IMG/VR virus record: IMGVR_UViG_3300037088_000771
Location: 77 to 64,076 of that record
DNA length: 64,000 nt
Strand: one strand, 5' to 3'
Origin: a virus
Lineage: Duplodnaviria; Caudoviricetes
The position numbers were made by a program, and so were the translations under genes. The notes beneath the pieces were generated by a model. It ran no database searches, had not been told where the DNA came from, and was given only the letters and a program-made list of their open reading frames with translations. Positions 1,164-36,894 of the stretch are shown here, piece after piece (the stretch's first letter is position 1; the number at the start of each line of letters is the position of its first letter).

Positions 1164-1628
1164 ATGAGAAATAGTTATAATAAAGAAATGATTGAATCTG
1201 CAGTTGCATCAAGTATGTGCTGGGCAGATGTATGTAGAAAATTGGGAGTACAACCAATGACTGGTTCACAAACACATTTGAAAAAAAGAGCGTGTGATTT
1301 TAATATAGATTATTCGCATTTTACTGGTAGTGGACACAAAAAAGGAAAAACATACGAAAAAAAAGATGCATTGGAATATTGTTTTAACGGTAGTACAATT
1401 AGCTCACATAAATTAAAAAACAAATTAATACGTGACGGATATAAAGAAAAACGTTGTGAAAAATGTAAAAACGATAAGTGGATGGGTGAAGACATTCCAT
1501 TAGAACTTCATCATATTGACAGTAACCATTTTAATAACGAATTAAAAAATCTTGTAATTCTTTGTGCTAATTGTCACGCAATTGAAGATGCAAAAATACA
1601 ACAACCTGTCGTGGCGCAACTGGAGTAA
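1164..1628 (+). CDS. HNH homing endonuclease
   Basis: CxxC...LELHHIDSNHFNN...LVILCANCH motif; likely start ATG 1164 (the ORF-track extension runs through tRNA genes). Confidence 0.85.
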   Translation: MRNSYNKEMIESAVASSMCWADVCRKLGVQPMTGSQTHLKKRACDFNIDYSHFTGSGHKKGKTYEKKDALEYCFNGSTISSHKLKNKLIRDGYKEKRCEKCKNDKWMGEDIPLELHHIDSNHFNNELKNLVILCANCHAIEDAKIQQPVVAQLE

Positions 1629-3512: not shown

Positions 3513-4247
3513 ATGTTAATTATAAGTAAGAAAAAGGATTATTATGATGGTGTCGTTGGCACTATGGGTGTTGACAAAACCATTGTCTACAATCGTGATA
3601 CGGTTGAACTTGAAAACAATTTATTACCAAAACCATTCAAAGTATCCAGAGGTTATTGGGGTTTAAATCATCGTGAAAATCCTTTTCATGAACTAATCTA
3701 TCACAGCATTAATAAAGAAAAGAGAAACGTTTGTGATGAATATGCTCATTTTATCATAGGGTTCTGCGGAAAATTGTATATTGGTTGGAAACTTTACACT
3801 GAAATTGATACTGAAACTCATGCTATAAGCACCGAAATAACATATGATGCTGAATTCATGAAAACTATTTTAGAAGTAAAAAGCTGGCATGGTAATCTGG
3901 ATGATAGTATCAAATACATTTTAACTTATGATGCATTACCAATATTCAGATTTTTAAAAGTACCTGTTTTTATTTATGACGGAGATTTTGATAGAAAAAC
4001 TTTTGATAAAAGACGTAGCATTTATAACAGTCATAAACCAAAATTCTTAATTAATCCACTTTTGAAGGATTATGAATTTTATAAAGTATTCGATACATTT
4101 CAAGCATTTCAAGAAGTATCAATGTTTATGGGTGGAGTACTTGGTGCAGGTGAAAAGGAAATAACTGAAGTGGCTGATAAATATAAGATTACACAACACG
4201 GATTCAATAAATTTAGTTTTAGAAAAGATAAAGAAATAAAAAAATGA
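3513..4247 (+). CDS. hypothetical phage protein
   Basis: 244-aa ORF; KDYYD N-terminus and HGF..SFRK C-terminus. Confidence 0.7.
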   Translation: MLIISKKKDYYDGVVGTMGVDKTIVYNRDTVELENNLLPKPFKVSRGYWGLNHRENPFHELIYHSINKEKRNVCDEYAHFIIGFCGKLYIGWKLYTEIDTETHAISTEITYDAEFMKTILEVKSWHGNLDDSIKYILTYDALPIFRFLKVPVFIYDGDFDRKTFDKRRSIYNSHKPKFLINPLLKDYEFYKVFDTFQAFQEVSMFMGGVLGAGEKEITEVADKYKITQHGFNKFSFRKDKEIKK

Positions 4248-5240: not shown

Positions 5241-5590
5241 GGGGGTGTTTTGGCTTTGACAGCATGGCAGACTGGTATAGTAAGCAAGTGGTAGTTGAAT
5301 CGGACTACGTTAAAAAGGTTCAAAACAACAAACGCAGAAGACATAATGTCTATTCCAACTTCTCTCACGAGAGGTAACGCAGTATTCGCAAGAAACGCTG
5401 AACTTGCAATCGCAGCATAGGAAGCAAAAAAATCGGCAAAGAACCTTCCCGCTTGAGGAAGCAAAAGACAAGACGGCTTGTTGATGTTCCGCAAACATCA
5501 GATATTTCGCTGAATCAGAAAATTCAGATAAACTTGTAGAAAACATATTGATCGCATGTTTGGACCGGGGTTCGACTCCCCGCACTTCCA
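5241..5590 (+). ncRNA. ssrA: tmRNA
   Basis: 5' gggggtg..tttgac; 3' ggaccggggttcgactccccgcacttcca; G3:U pair; tag ORF 5334-5420 AEDIMSIPTSLTRGNAVFARNAELAIAA*. Confidence 0.92.
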
Positions 5591-5610
5591 CTAACAAACA
5601 AAAATGAGCA

Positions 5611-12692: not shown

Positions 12693-13141
12693 TGAATGTC
12701 TTAAACATTATAAAAGAGGAAATTAATAAATTTGTTTCTGAATCATATGAAGATGTCGGGATTGATTACATTATGAATGATTCAAAGAAATTAAAGGATT
12801 ATCAAGATTATAAGAATAAAAAAATTATTAATGGTATTACATATCTTAATTTTGCAAGCACATTTGATGACGATTGGTATATTTGGAATACAATAAAAGC
12901 ATTTGATAATATTGACGGTACTGAAGTTGGAAATGTTTCATACGGCAAAGAAAAAGAAAATGATATATTAAAAGCAACGATAGATGTAAGACCAGATAAA
13001 AGAAGATTGGGCATTGGTAGTAATATGTATAAATGGATTGAAGAATTAACAGGCGAAAAACTTTACCCCGATGCGCCTCATAGTCAATTGGCTGCAAAAT
13101 TTTGGAATAGTCCAAAAAGAACTTTTGGTTATGATAAATAA
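12692..13141 (+). CDS. GNAT-family acetyltransferase
   Basis: VRPDKRRLGIGS motif A; AAKFW. Confidence 0.75.
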   Translation: MNVLNIIKEEINKFVSESYEDVGIDYIMNDSKKLKDYQDYKNKKIINGITYLNFASTFDDDWYIWNTIKAFDNIDGTEVGNVSYGKEKENDILKATIDVRPDKRRLGIGSNMYKWIEELTGEKLYPDAPHSQLAAKFWNSPKRTFGYDK

Positions 13142-13192
13142 AATAATTTAAAAATAACTGTATTTTTATTTGGAAATGTCGTATTTATAAAA

Positions 13193-13200
13193 TACATTTG
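13193..13200 (+). promoter_or_regulatory. Bacteroidota sigma-A -7 element (TAnnTTTG)
   Basis: tacatttg with upstream tttg; same box at 24625, 32987, 36832 and before several other genes. Confidence 0.65.
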
Positions 13201-13238
13201 TCACCTGAAGTATTAACAAATAGATAAAGAACAAAACA

Positions 13239-13331
13239 ATGAGAACGTTTGGTACATATTATTACGGTAAAAAATCTTATAAGAAACAGCTTATAGGAAT
13301 CGGGAATACTATGACCAAAGGTAAAAGATAA
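13239..13331 (+). CDS. Tyr/Lys-rich attenuator leader peptide (30 aa)
   Basis: MRTFGTYYYGKKSYKKQLIGIGNTMTKGKR*, followed by a terminator and Lys/Tyr tRNAs. Confidence 0.8.
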   Translation: MRTFGTYYYGKKSYKKQLIGIGNTMTKGKR

Positions 13332-13360
13332 CTTTCGTACTTTTTTTCATAATTAAGATT

Positions 13361-13389
13361 AACCCGATTCGCAAGATCGGGTTTTTTTT
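13361..13389 (+). terminator. attenuator terminator
   Basis: aacccgattc-gcaa-gatcgggtt plus T run; 5' arm complementary to gaatcggg in the leader (13297-13304). Confidence 0.85.
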
Positions 13390-13518
13390 GCATAAAAACG
13401 CATATTCTTGCATAAAAACGCATAGATTATGAAAAACAGGTAGAAAATGACATATTTTATGAAAAACAGTTATTTGTTATGAAAAACGTTTAAAAAACGA
13501 TAGTTTTTGTGAAAAACG
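13389..13518. repeat. short degenerate repeats (tgcataaaaacgcata x2; t(a/g)tgaaaaac x4)
   Basis: Visible between the terminator and the first tRNA-Lys. Confidence 0.7.
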
Positions 13519-13523
13519 GGTTT

Positions 13524-13596
13524 GCGCTCGTAACTCAGTTGGTAGAGTAACGGACCTTTAATCCGTGAGTCAAGGGTTCGACCCCCTTCGGGCGCA
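13524..13596 (+). tRNA. tRNA-Lys(TTT), C33 variant
   Basis: acgga-ccTTTaa-tccgt. Confidence 0.85.
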
Positions 13597-13649
13597 CTGA
13601 GGTAGAATTTAGGTATTTTCTGTATCCCTGATAACTGAAATATCCACAC

Positions 13650-13721
13650 CCACTCGTAGCAAAGTGGCTATGCTACCGCCCTTTAAGCGGACTCACGTAG
13701 GTTCGATTCCTACCGAGTGGA
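13650..13721 (+). tRNA. tRNA-Lys(TTT), C33 variant
   Basis: ccgc-ccTTTaa-gcgg; acceptor ccactcg/cgagtgg. Confidence 0.8.
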
Positions 13722-13726
13722 CAACT

Positions 13727-13808
13727 GGAAATGTTGGGTGCTGGAATACCCAAGAGTCTGTAAAACTCCCGCTTCGGCATGTTGGTTCGAGTCCAACCAT
13801 TTCCACCA
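13727..13808 (+). tRNA. tRNA-Tyr(GTA)
   Basis: gagt-ctGTAaa-actc; variable arm; CCA. Confidence 0.88.
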
Positions 13809-13813
13809 AATTT

Positions 13814-13899
13814 GGGATTGCGCTATCGTGGGAGAGATAGGCTGGTCTGTAAAACCAGTGCCATTGGCTGAGTGGGTTCGAATCCCACCAATCCCACCA
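13814..13899 (+). tRNA. tRNA-Tyr(GTA)
   Basis: ctggt-ctGTAaa-accag; CCA. Confidence 0.88.
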
Positions 13900-13901
13900 A
13901 T

Positions 13902-13973
13902 ACATTCGTAGCAAAACGGTTATGCTCCCGCCCCTTAAGCGGACAGACGTGGGTTCGACCCCCACCGAATGCA
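13902..13973 (+). tRNA. tRNA-Lys(CTT), C33 variant
   Basis: ccgc-ccCTTaa-gcgg; 1:72 mismatch. Confidence 0.75.
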
Positions 13974-14383
13974 CAAAATTTTTATTATGGAAACAATTAA
14001 AACAATTGTAAACGGAACAGAAGCAACTTTAAGCCACATATGTAATGGCAAAGCATGCTTCAAGATTATGACAGCAGAACACAGTTATCAACTTGAAATT
14101 GACTTGATGGATTCTGAGTGGAAAGACGTGTACGTATATCCAGTATACAAGACAATTACTTTAATGCGCTGGATACGAAAAGGCATTGAAAAAGATGATG
14201 ATTCATTCATCATGCTAAAATAATTTCTCAGTAGATCATGGAAACTTACAAAATTTATTTTTTGTAAGTTTTTTTATTTCAATAAGTTATAATTTTTATT
14301 TAGTCTAAATTAAAATTATCTTGCTTTTTTAATTAAAAGTATTTATATTTACAAAAATAATTTTATGCTTAAGTTTATGAAAA

Positions 14384-18707: not shown

Positions 18708-20948
18708 ATGAAAAAAAATGTAAAATTCGATGAAAACTATTATCTCATTTCTCAAGAAGCTAATAGTACAGCAACTGTAGAAGTTGCAAAAAAAACAAAC
18801 CACATTTTCGTGGTAGACGTATCTGGCTCAATGTCATGGGAACTCCCAAAAATCAGAACACAATTGAAAAATAAACTTTCCAACATTATGAAGGAAGGTG
18901 ATACCATTACTATTGTGTGGTTCTCAGGCAGCAGGGATGCTGGAATCCTCAAAGAAGAAGTTGAAGTAAAATCACTTAAAACTTTATCCGATCTACATGA
19001 TGCAATTGACAAATGGCTTCGTCCAGTTGGCTTAACTGCATTCTTAAAACCACTTGAACTCGTTAAAGAAGTCATTGGTAGAATCAGAAAGAACAGACCT
19101 GACAGTGTGTTCTCAATGATCTTTCTTACCGATGGTTGCAACAACGATTGTCCTTGGAATGACGTAATTAAAACACTCAAATCACTTGAGGTTGAAATCG
19201 CTTCTTCAACATTCGTTGAATACGGTTATTATGCTGATTCACGTGCATTAACCCAAATGGCAAGCGTTCTTGGCGGTGAAAAAATCAGTTGTGACGGTTT
19301 CGATGACTTCGAACCAATGTTTGATGCAAAAATTTCATCAAGCGTTTATGGTGGCAAGAAAATCATTGTTAATATTACCGACAAATACCTTTATGACTTC
19401 GCATTTAGCGTTGGAAAAGACGGTAGCGTGTTACTATACAACATAGCCGACAACAAAATCATGGTTGGTAGTGATGTTAAGGAAATTTATTTCTTCAGTC
19501 CTAATGGAGTTGGTGGCGGAACAATCATAGATGGTGCACTTTACGCTGCAATTTATGTTCTTTCAGATAAACTTCTGAATGACGATGCAGAGAAAGTTTT
19601 TTATGCACTTGGTGACAACTATTATTATAGAATGTTGGCAAATGCTTTTGGAAAACAGAAACTCAATTCATTTAAAGCAGCCATTAAAGAATGTGTTGCC
19701 GATGTATCAAAAAGATTTCTTGATGGTGGAAAAGCAGCAATACAGAAAGTCCCTGATGATGCATATTGTTTGATGAATCTTATCGAAGATTTGGGAAATA
19801 CTGAAGGTTGTTTGTTTTACAAAGGACATCCTGATTTCAATTACAATCTTATTGGTAGAAAACGTGTTGCAAGGGGTGAAAATTTATCAGAAACTGATAA
19901 GAAAAGATTGTCTGAAGCAAAGAATGTTGAAGAAATCAGCAAGATCACAGAAGAACTCAAACAGAAAAATGTTGAAATTAAGTTCGTAGATTCTAACCCA
20001 AACAGAGGTTATCCTCTTACAGTCTTAGTATGGAATGAAAAACGTGCAAATCTTTCTATTCGTGTTTATATTGAAGGTGAAGCAATTATACCAGAAAACA
20101 AATTTGGTATTGAAAAAGTTGCTTCTTTCAGATACAAAACATATACCATTATTAAAGATGGTATCGTGAACATTAAGAAACTTCCAGTAACATGGTCACC
20201 TGAATTAGATCAATTATTGGTGAAATATGGTGTCAGTCATAACATAGACTTAGCAAATAAAGTAGTTGTTATTGATTTTACCAGTTTACCACTTATTAAC
20301 AGGGGAATGGTAAGAAGTATTTCAGCTAAAGGTCTTGCAATTCAGGAGTGGGAACTTCAGAAGTTACAGGCAGACAAAAAGGTTTACGATTATTTCAGGA
20401 AATCATTGTTTCCAAAAGAAAGTAAGTCATTTGTTGAACTGCTTGGTCAGGAAGCTGCTGATTGGCTCAAAACAATCGGAGTTACTGATTACAATGGCTT
20501 TGCACCATTGACAGATGCTGAAGAATCAACTGACTTTTATATGTCAGTCAATCTTGAAACTAAAATCAAAGGTTTCTCTTCATTACCAAAGGTTGAAGAC
20601 GTTATCGCCAAACTTAAAGACGGTAAACCTCTTAAGCCAACCGAATTGATCATGTCTGACGCAGTGAAGAAATATCAAACACAGCTTGAATCTGACATGT
20701 ACAAATCATTGAATGAAGAACAACAGAAAGGTGTGTTGAAAACATATCTTATCACCAAGTCTGACATTTTGAACAAAAAGAGAAGAAAAGCATTACAGGA
20801 GATCGCACAGATCAAATTCTCGCTTATTCTTTCTAAGAAATGGTTTACTGAATTCAAAACATTCGATGAAAATAAACTAAGTCTTAAACTTGACGGTCAG
20901 GATTTGGAGTTTACCTTCGATCTAAGTGAAAAAGAAGAAAAAATCTAA
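18708..20948 (+). CDS. large vWA domain protein
   Basis: VVDVSGSM MIDAS and FLTDG; 746 aa. Confidence 0.85.
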   Translation: MKKNVKFDENYYLISQEANSTATVEVAKKTNHIFVVDVSGSMSWELPKIRTQLKNKLSNIMKEGDTITIVWFSGSRDAGILKEEVEVKSLKTLSDLHDAIDKWLRPVGLTAFLKPLELVKEVIGRIRKNRPDSVFSMIFLTDGCNNDCPWNDVIKTLKSLEVEIASSTFVEYGYYADSRALTQMASVLGGEKISCDGFDDFEPMFDAKISSSVYGGKKIIVNITDKYLYDFAFSVGKDGSVLLYNIADNKIMVGSDVKEIYFFSPNGVGGGTIIDGALYAAIYVLSDKLLNDDAEKVFYALGDNYYYRMLANAFGKQKLNSFKAAIKECVADVSKRFLDGGKAAIQKVPDDAYCLMNLIEDLGNTEGCLFYKGHPDFNYNLIGRKRVARGENLSETDKKRLSEAKNVEEISKITEELKQKNVEIKFVDSNPNRGYPLTVLVWNEKRANLSIRVYIEGEAIIPENKFGIEKVASFRYKTYTIIKDGIVNIKKLPVTWSPELDQLLVKYGVSHNIDLANKVVVIDFTSLPLINRGMVRSISAKGLAIQEWELQKLQADKKVYDYFRKSLFPKESKSFVELLGQEAADWLKTIGVTDYNGFAPLTDAEESTDFYMSVNLETKIKGFSSLPKVEDVIAKLKDGKPLKPTELIMSDAVKKYQTQLESDMYKSLNEEQQKGVLKTYLITKSDILNKKRRKALQEIAQIKFSLILSKKWFTEFKTFDENKLSLKLDGQDLEFTFDLSEKEEKI

Positions 20949-20970
20949 GTATCTTCATAATTAAAGATTA

Positions 20971-20998
20971 AACCCCAAAGAAATTTGGGGTTTTTTTG
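20971..20998 (+). terminator. intrinsic terminator
   Basis: aaaccccaaa-gaaa-tttggggttttttt. Confidence 0.75.
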
Positions 20999-24581: not shown

Positions 24582-24673
24582 TGTAAAAAAAATGTAAAAA
24601 AGTTGCAGATAACAAAACTTTATTTACCTTTGCAGAGTATTTAAATGAAAACGAACTTATATTTTTAAAACAA

Positions 24674-24808
24674 ATGAAAACGTACAGGACAATATCAGAA
24701 GATTTCACATCGACCTCAAGTCGTAGTGGAAATGGTATATGCTGTTCAATTTTTACAGGCAGAAATAATGCAGATACGGGTTCTGGTTTTAAAGACATCA
24801 TTGACTGA
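24674..24808 (+). CDS. Thr/Ser/Cys/Asn/Ile/Phe/Gly/Arg-rich attenuator leader peptide (44 aa)
   Basis: MKTYRTISEDFTSTSSRSGNGICCSIFTGRNNADTGSGFKDIID*, followed by a terminator and a matching tRNA array. Confidence 0.8.
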   Translation: MKTYRTISEDFTSTSSRSGNGICCSIFTGRNNADTGSGFKDIID

Positions 24809-24830
24809 TAATTTTAAAACTTTATAAAAG

Positions 24831-24862
24831 AGAACCCGATTCGCAAGATTCGGGTTTTTTTG
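24831..24862 (+). terminator. attenuator terminator
   Basis: aacccgattc-gcaa-gattcgggtt plus T run; 5' arm agaacccg complementary to cgggttct in the leader (24777-24784). Confidence 0.85.
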
Positions 24863-26459: not shown

Positions 26460-26535
26460 GGGGAGATAGTTTACAATGAGCAAAACGTCTGCTATTCGAA
26501 GAGCAGATAAAGAGGTTTAAATCCTTTTCTCTCCG
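26460..26535 (+). tRNA. tRNA-like gene with expanded (8-nt) anticodon loop
   Basis: Acceptor ggggaga/tctctcc; tctgct-attcgaag-agcaga; degenerate T loop. Confidence 0.5.
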
Positions 26536-36714: not shown

Positions 36715-36788
36715 GCTTCCGGGGCTGGGTGGCAAAAGGCATTGGTCTCTAAAACCAATTTGTGCAGGTTCGATTCCTGTCGGAAGTA
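36715..36788 (+). tRNA. amber suppressor tRNA (CTA)
   Basis: ttggt-ctCTAaa-accaa; acceptor gcttccg/cggaagt; T arm gcagg-ttcgatt-cctgt. Confidence 0.85.
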
Positions 36789-36894
36789 CAAAAATAAATG
36801 AAGAATAATTTGGAAATTAAAAAACTTTGACTAATTTTGTATCTCAATAGTATTTATAAGTCTACAGAGTAATATTAATTAACAAAGAAAAACG

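Follow-up and report, generated by a model that had tools for sequence, protein, structure and literature searches.

A candidate leader-peptide attenuator ahead of the Lys/Tyr tRNA genes of a giant phage, with codon-matched counterparts before other tRNA arrays of its lineage

Leader-peptide attenuators include trpL, hisL, pheL and leuL as well as the thrL and ilvGMEDA leaders, which are multivalent, and the pheST attenuator with its pheM leader sets the expression of a synthetase operon according to its cognate charged tRNA. The T-box riboswitch binds uncharged tRNA directly and does not need translation. The role of pheL as an attenuator leader is described in PMC3082878. In Anabaena, the trn operon is an accessory tRNA array that stays silent until translation is impaired and is controlled through direct repeats located at its promoter (PMC8421152) and by the repressor TrcR (PMC10272220); attenuation, leader peptide and terminator go unmentioned in PMC8421152. 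For phage T5, a report attributes tRNA-Tyr overexpression to a strong promoter and describes no sensing leader (PMC11555353). The timing and dosage of phage-encoded tRNAs are otherwise poorly understood, the published cases being strong constitutive promoters or, for the bacterial array, a repressor. Here we analyze a 64-kb fragment of a very large ("giant") phage (record IMGVR_UViG_3300037088_000771; 64,000 nucleotides, 33.6% GC), which spans nearly all of its contig and is referred to below as the window. A block of Lys and Tyr tRNA genes in this window is preceded by what is likely a ribosome-mediated leader-peptide attenuator, which would govern read-through from a promoter-like site at 13169-13200 into the block by sensing the decoding of its own tRNAs' codons, so that the phage probably makes these tRNAs only while the ribosome reads Lys and Tyr codons slowly. 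A full-text search of openly accessible articles found no report of tRNA genes under leader-peptide attenuation, and within the literature so covered trp-operon-style control of tRNA genes has not been described before.

The Lys/Tyr locus, termed module D, presents the parts of a classical attenuator in the usual order, namely, a promoter-like site, a short open reading frame (ORF), a cognate codon run, exclusive helices, and a terminator, all on the plus strand, as are the other window features described below unless stated otherwise. The promoter-like site (13169-13200) consists of TTTG (13169-13172), 20 nt, and TACATTTG (13193-13200), and it is one of 13 sites, among the 42 TAnnTTTG sites of the window, that fit the motif TTG-N19-21-TAnnTTTG, which we take to be the Bacteroidota -33/-7 promoter consensus. 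Other such sites precede ORFs at 3513, 15425, 18462, and 49812, several of them lying just ahead of long ORFs. An A-rich leader sequence separates the site from the leader ORF (13239-13331), which comprises 30 codons plus TAA and translates as MRTFGTYYYGKKSYKKQLIGIGNTMTKGKR. Codons 7 to 16 (13257-13286; TAT TAT TAC GGT AAA AAA TCT TAT AAG AAA) form the putative regulatory run YYYGKKSYKK, in which 8 of 10 residues are Tyr or Lys. A density of at least 8 Lys/Tyr per 10 residues is met in none of the 11,825 ten-residue segments of the 47 long ORFs of the window, and among 423 small ORFs in six frames it is found in the leader ORF only.

The minimum-energy fold of 13201-13395 (-42 kcal/mol; z = -4.81; equaled by 0 of 200 shuffles) is composed of a 1:2 hairpin, pairing 13248-13283 with 13290-13319, and a terminator. 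Segment 1 (13248-13283) is the 5' arm of this anti-antiterminator hairpin, and segment 2 (13290-13319) is its 3' arm, the core of which, gaatcggg (13297-13304), would be the antiterminator strand, being exactly reverse-complementary to cccgattc (13363-13370) in segment 3, the terminator 5' arm (13361-13370). Dinucleotide shuffling produced a complement of this length 94 times in 5000 trials and 31 times in 2000, and 2 of 408 tiles of the window contain one. The terminator hairpin (13361-13383) has nine pairs and a loop of 5 nt; segment 4 (13375-13389) contains its 3' arm (13375-13383) and an eight-T run to 13389, the first two T of which are the last two stem bases. Since the segment 2 core shares six of its eight nucleotides with the 1:2 hairpin, while its partner sits within the terminator arm, the 1:2, 2:3, and 3:4 helices are mutually exclusive. 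The original prediction had proposed this arrangement from the letters alone, and its parts stand: the 8-in-10 Tyr/Lys leader is upheld by its conceptual translation and by the window statistics, the 1:2 pairs are reproduced exactly by the minimum-energy fold, the 2:3 antiterminator is an exact 8-nt complement, and the terminator resembling one at about 24831 indeed has a single near copy in the window, at 24833-24855, with three ungapped mismatches that stem from one extra T (0 expected by chance).

With an adequate supply of tRNA, the ribosome would pass the Tyr/Lys run and reach the stop codon at 13329, the 1:2 hairpin would re-form behind it, segment 3 would pair with segment 4, and the polymerase would terminate at 13389; as segment 2 precedes the stop codon, this re-forming should be what termination depends on when supply is good. 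If charged Lys or Tyr tRNA became scarce, the ribosome would stall within 13257-13286 and cover segment 1, leaving segment 2 (13297-13304) free to pair with segment 3 once the latter is transcribed; no terminator would then form, and the polymerase would go on to transcribe five tRNA genes together with a 78-codon ORF. A leader that is not translated would form the 1:2 hairpin and be terminated. Because the products are tRNAs that relieve the stall, the whole would amount to a negative-feedback, supply-on-demand circuit, and the same device, with different codons, would stand before the other tRNA arrays of the lineage. Folds of the nascent RNA up to 13372 are consistent with this scheme: without a ribosome the fold is the 1:2 hairpin with segment 3 free, and with a 29- to 35-nt footprint on any of four Tyr/Lys stall positions (Tyr 7-9, Lys 11-12, Tyr 14, and Lys 15-16) it is the 2:3 helix (-18.7 kcal/mol, 13289-13372).

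Most homologues of module D were recovered by a probe lying outside the leader. L001 and L002 came from a scan with a flanking protein, L004 and L013 from a scan with the terminator 17-mer, L026 is the corresponding region of the relative G002 (363 kb, rated complete), and 11 metagenome loci, L029-L039, were found with the spacer-repeat motif, a probe that likewise lies outside the leader. The 17-mer scan returned two Lys/Tyr loci, four loci of Cys/Asn/Ile arrays (three with a full leader), and seven chance matches (L005, L008, L009, L011, L012, L014, and L016) that are GC rich and without tRNAs and were dropped. The alignment comprises 12 distinct sequences after removal of duplicates: L013 and L033 are identical to L026, and L032 is identical to L001; L029 was excluded because of its different context and L030 because its leader is truncated at the contig end, the latter being otherwise like L039.

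In all 12 sequences there is an ORF of 28 to 30 codons with the same ATG start and the core YY(Y/F)GKKSYKK (F in three), both gaatcggg and cccgattc are retained so that the eight pairs of the 2:3 helix are invariant, and the terminator stem is kept, with variation confined to its loop and inner 3' arm; the promoter-like block is kept as well. The N- and C-terminal residues of the leader are free to change, and the spacer from stop codon to terminator is variable in both its sequence and its length. The 27 pairs of the 1:2 hairpin are well maintained (its two helices have 93.5% and 99.1% of their cells paired), with one clean switch of a pair, G-C in five sequences and A-U in seven, and over the whole module 96.5% of cells pair, versus 37-53% with the partner slid. 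The cargo is made up of Lys and Tyr tRNAs at every locus, in shifting order and copy number, except for two questionable ARAGORN calls, at L037 and L038. A tie between the Tyr-to-Phe change at codon 9 in three homologues and a Phe tRNA in the cargo was considered and ruled out, there being no such association. In 11 of the 12 homologues, the last two Lys codons (13281-13286 of the window; alignment columns 91-96) comprise a single AAG and a single AAA, in either order, a pattern by which the leader might stay responsive to both tRNA-Lys(CUU) and tRNA-Lys(UUU).

As far as can be read from sequence, the generality of the design across arrays is the strongest evidence for an attenuator. Three further modules, distinguished as A (Pro/His/Gln), B (Asp/Glu/Val/Leu/Ala/Trp), and E (Thr/Cys/Asn/Ile/Ser/Phe/Gly), carry leaders matched to their own cargo. 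Module E of the window (24602-24860) has a promoter-like motif (24602-24632), the leader MKTYRTISEDFTSTSSRSGNGICCSIFTGRNNADTGSGFKDIID, a candidate antiterminator, cgggttct (24777-24784), that is complementary to the terminator arm, and a terminator, and its Thr, Cys, Asn, Ile, Ser, Phe, and Gly tRNAs start 15 nt past the latter. After Met, 31 of the 43 leader residues belong to the set of its own array, against 15.9 expected (P = 3e-6), with a run of 19 in 21 that is matched by 0 of 11,308 proteome windows. In G002, the module A leader contains PQPQQHPQ and is followed by tRNAs for Pro (three), His (two), and Gln (three), with gaatgggg pairing opposite ccccattc, and the module B leader, MKNLFDILVAVLMVDVLLWAAEEDDLCVVG (..DILVAVLMVDVLLWAAEEDDLCVVG), precedes tRNAs for Asp, Glu, Val, Leu, Ala, and Trp, with gtagtcgggt facing the terminator arm. 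When the four leaders were set against the four arrays, each showed enrichment for its own set alone (P = 3.5e-4, 3.2e-6, 6.4e-3, and 4.7e-5), all off-diagonal P values were at least 0.07, and the true assignment was the best of 24. Every module has, in the 3' part of its leader, an 8- to 11-nt exact complement of the terminator 5' arm, a length that was reached by 31, 16, 36, 4, 25, and 0 of 2000 shuffles.

The window itself lacks a module B leader because the contig starts inside the first tRNA-Asp; the leader is present in G005, which is 95% identical to the window. Segments 2, 3, and 4 of module B read TAGTCGGGT, ACCCGACTA, and TAGTCGGGT in G002 and G001 and CAGTCGGGT, ACCCGACTG, and CAGTCGGGT in G005, which is a three-way compensatory change that would keep antiterminator and terminator alike. 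The terminator is separated from the first tRNA by 15 to 45 nt in modules A, B, and E, and because this distance leaves no room for a separate promoter, read-through is the only visible source of a transcript. Taken together, the conservation in 12 of 12 homologues, the three additional codon-matched modules, and the three-way covariation support the attenuator reading of the original prediction well. At the Thr/Cys/Asn array of G002 (L027, 6151-6218), the antiterminator complement is 11 to 12 nt long and appears in the minimum-energy fold even unstalled; the set point of the attenuator seems to differ between modules and genomes.

The genes that would be controlled in module D are tRNA-Lys(UUU) at 13524-13597 and 13650-13722 (both found by ARAGORN and Rfam, with the anticodon loop CCUUUAA), tRNA-Tyr(GUA) at 13727-13808 (ARAGORN only, under the Rfam tRNA gathering score) and 13814-13899 (ARAGORN), both with a long variable arm and an encoded CCA, and a fifth tRNA at 13902-13973, which ARAGORN labels Leu(taa). 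The second tRNA-Tyr gene has 75-80% identity to annotated tRNA-Tyr genes of Bacillus phages. The fifth gene is better assigned to Lys(CUU), as the original prediction of three Lys and two Tyr genes implied, because its anticodon loop in the Rfam tRNA alignment is CCCUUAA, it shares 81% identity with the second Lys gene, and the Lys/Tyr blocks of relatives contain a gene, possibly its orthologue, called Lys(ctt) by ARAGORN. The same terminator-bounded unit includes the 78-codon ORF (13987-14223), for which no Pfam or PHROG family was found, and a terminator-like hairpin with a T run (14243-14276) would end it.

The attenuator terminator is separated from the first tRNA by an array of about 130 nt (13388-13519) with six phased A-tract units, TTGCATAAAAAC twice and RTGAAAAAC four times, spaced by 20, 17, 30, 20, and 30 nt. 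It occurs once in the contig and once in G002, and being unique in that 363-kb relative, it is not a general tRNA promoter. Its RNA is not unusually structured (z = -0.9), and the array may act as an operator, as curved DNA, or as a second promoter. An interpretation of the spacer units as (M/V)KNxY mini-ORFs was rejected, since neither lengths nor stops are conserved (MKNR*, MKNSYLL*, and MKNV* in the window), and these mini-ORFs are treated as a by-product of the DNA repeat. L029, a distant phage fragment, has three copies of the 20-mer (1409-1470, minus strand) in opposite orientation, abutting the 5' end of a tRNA-Lys(CUU), and there the array and tRNA follow an ORF that by eye resembles a homing endonuclease. 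In a contig of a relative that is probably DNA, 13319 is joined to 13522 via 74 other letters, which may represent a version without the repeat array.

Several observations weigh against the attenuator reading and can be grouped as follows: (i) covariation inside module D is thin, as 24 of 36 pairs never vary and two-sided change occurs in just 2, one of which is unpaired in 7 of 12 sequences, and the 2:3 helix is uninformative by itself because it is invariant; (ii) the full-length leader keeps the terminator in all four stalled states, at -25.1 to -28.7 kcal/mol versus -22.9 kcal/mol with 2:3 forced, and a stall at the last Lys codon would bring the ribosome onto the first base of segment 2 (13297); (iii) the repeat array could carry a second promoter or operator; (iv) the codons ATA, ACA/ACG, and GGT/GGC of the module E leader are without a matching anticodon in that array; and (v) the host may not couple transcription with translation, and the sole identical RNA match is a 151-nt contig (14022-14172) without starts, ends, or levels that is silent on transcription. 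That contig derives from a metatranscriptome and was found among the assembled contigs of the four RNA runs examined, in which pieces from relatives were below 95% identity; the RNA-run search had listed 11 runs, 9 with part of the stretch and none with more than 8% of its words. The covariation check across homologues that the original prediction had proposed yielded the compensatory change in module B, whereas in module D it is too weak to prove the hairpin. As for the energies, the terminator is more stable by 2 to 6 kcal/mol in the finished RNA, and equilibrium folding of the complete leader, with the footprint masked, gave no antiterminator in module D or in the module E of the window, the antiterminator appearing in nascent-transcript folds only; because the terminator wins at equilibrium on the full-length RNA, the choice must be kinetic and co-transcriptional, as it is in classical attenuators.

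Two other explanations of the leader can be set against these data. The promoter, hairpin, and terminator could constitute a free-standing small gene, encoding a small RNA or a 30-residue peptide, with the tRNAs transcribed from a site in the repeat array, which we regard as unlikely. The layout of the array, with 5 to 7 units, is indeed kept in all 12 homologues, its last unit always ends 4 to 10 nt ahead of the first tRNA, the reversed copies set against tRNA-Lys(CUU) in the distant fragment are what would be expected of a DNA-level site, and the Anabaena tRNA operon offers a precedent for control through direct repeats at a promoter (PMC8421152 and, for the TrcR repressor, PMC10272220). Direct repeats are present here; a promoter consensus within them was not found, the plus strand of the array having no sigma-70-like or TTG-N19-21-TAnnTTTG match, and modules A, B, and E share the design without an array and without room for a promoter, while a small RNA would leave the match of four leaders to the amino acids of their arrays unexplained. 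An internal promoter past the terminator, which the original prediction had named as the finding that would count against it, may nonetheless exist in module D: no promoter consensus appears there, and the conserved 130-nt repeat array could hide one. It is less probable still that the leader is simply translated and the hairpin a constitutive leaky terminator or an element of pre-tRNA processing or stability, with the codon match owed to descent or composition. Such a reading would fit the thermodynamic preference for the terminator on the full transcript and the antiterminator in the unstalled fold of the G002 module E, by which the balance varies between modules; it sits poorly with a segment 2 that is letter-identical in 12 of 12 sequences while adjacent codons change, that uses ATC and GGG codons despite a genome of 33.6% GC, and that in module B covaries three ways so as to preserve 2:3 along with 3:4, and with a stop codon whose position is held within 2 codons across homologues though the C-terminal residues vary. 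A ribosome-mediated attenuator accounts best for this combination.

The remaining question is what the attenuator would respond to. The original prediction took it for an inducible counter-defense module, and the underlying literature holds: AriB of PARIS degrades tRNA-Lys (PMC11464382), PtuAB degrades tRNA-Tyr, and PrrC170 is countered by phage tRNA-Lys (PMC11555353). The step from there to a dedicated switch answering anticodon nucleases against tRNA-Lys and tRNA-Tyr is not borne out, and we consider such a switch very improbable, given that the same device heads four arrays spanning 18 amino acids, i.e., also those for Pro/His/Gln, Asp/Glu/Val/Leu/Ala/Trp, and Thr/Cys/Asn/Ile/Ser/Phe/Gly, and is not specific to known nuclease targets. 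Because it is common to these arrays, the device is rather a general sensor of slow decoding, for which nuclease attack is possibly one trigger among several. Aside from the existence of such nucleases and their neutralization by phage Lys and Tyr tRNAs, a feature that speaks for defense is C33 in place of the near-universal U33, which occurs in 12 of 26 Lys tRNAs versus 0 of 14 Tyr tRNAs at ten module D loci, and in all three Lys tRNAs of the window (loops CCUUUAA and CCCUUAA); 8 of the 10 tabulated loci pair a C33 Lys tRNA with a U33 one, the exceptions being the window and L002. The pattern is reminiscent of the anticodon-loop variants suggested to evade nucleases in PMC10264068, which mentions neither 'U33' nor 'position 33'. 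A tentative extension is that the four codon-matched attenuators form a per-isotype homeostat of the tRNA pool, in which the Lys/Tyr module doubles as a defense-triggered switch and the repeat array adds a second, protein-mediated input. Each array would then be on only while its own codons are decoded slowly and would be turned off through its own products; an anticodon nuclease depleting tRNA-Lys or tRNA-Tyr would stall the leader and elicit a burst of phage tRNAs, and about half of the Lys species would bear a C33 loop that may escape cleavage.

Beyond the attenuator, ARAGORN found 45 tRNA genes and one tmRNA gene in the window, the latter at 5241-5593 and present in G002 too. A tRNA with a CUA anticodon, of the amber-suppressor type and labeled Pyl by ARAGORN, lies at 36715-36789, and G002 also has one; a tRNA-like match inside the second array, at 26460-26535, was made by Rfam only (35.2 bits) and not by ARAGORN; and the Asp-to-Trp array of G002 contains an ARAGORN tRNA with a four-base anticodon, taag (L026, 3185-3265). 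The terminator at 20950-20996, after the ORF at 18708-20948, has an upstream context (TTCATAATTAA[A]GATTAA[A]CCC) in common with the attenuator terminator at 13345-13365, and such terminator-context modules seem to be reused within the window. A permissive Rfam scan of 13100-14050 gave only tRNA-clan and chance-level matches, C0465 and a toxic-sRNA model matching the terminator alone (E 0.7-2), and in a blastn comparison with GenBank phages no record covered the leader, the matches being limited to tRNA-Tyr and RNR.

If the attenuator reading is true, the ribosome itself senses tRNA shortage, separately for each amino acid group, and a textbook mechanism is extended to a new class of targets. 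It would also provide a testable link between tRNA-targeting defenses or host shut-off and the expression of phage tRNAs, and such leaders would offer compact, codon-programmable sensors of decoding speed.

Among the known systems, the phage T5 tRNA region (versus PARIS, retron-Eco7, and PrrC) is similar in that phage Lys and Tyr tRNAs replace what host nucleases destroy. The T-box riboswitch resembles module D in that the charging state of a specific tRNA sets the choice between terminator and antiterminator, whereas the phage module would need translation of its leader, and no T-box or other Rfam family scored above chance in 13100-13523. The Anabaena trn operon is likewise an accessory tRNA array induced under translational stress, but it does not sense by isotype. 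With pheST and pheM the phage module shares the placing of a translation-apparatus gene under leader-peptide attenuation, although pheST concerns a bacterial synthetase and one amino acid and contains no tRNA genes. There is also a close correspondence with the attenuators of amino acid operons, which have the same promoter, short ORF, regulatory codons in segment 1, exclusive 1:2, 2:3, and 3:4 helices, and terminator before the controlled genes; the Lys-plus-Tyr leader and the seven-amino-acid leader of the phage are comparable, moreover, to the multi-amino-acid leaders of thr and ilv. Unlike in those operons, the stop codon of the phage leader lies past segment 2, so that the re-forming of 1:2, and not masking of segment 2 by the ribosome, would bring about termination, and downstream, where the narrow trp/his type has biosynthesis genes, there are five tRNAs and the 78-codon ORF. 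The phage module would thus control tRNA genes in place of biosynthetic enzymes, and its output would replenish the very molecule that is sensed.

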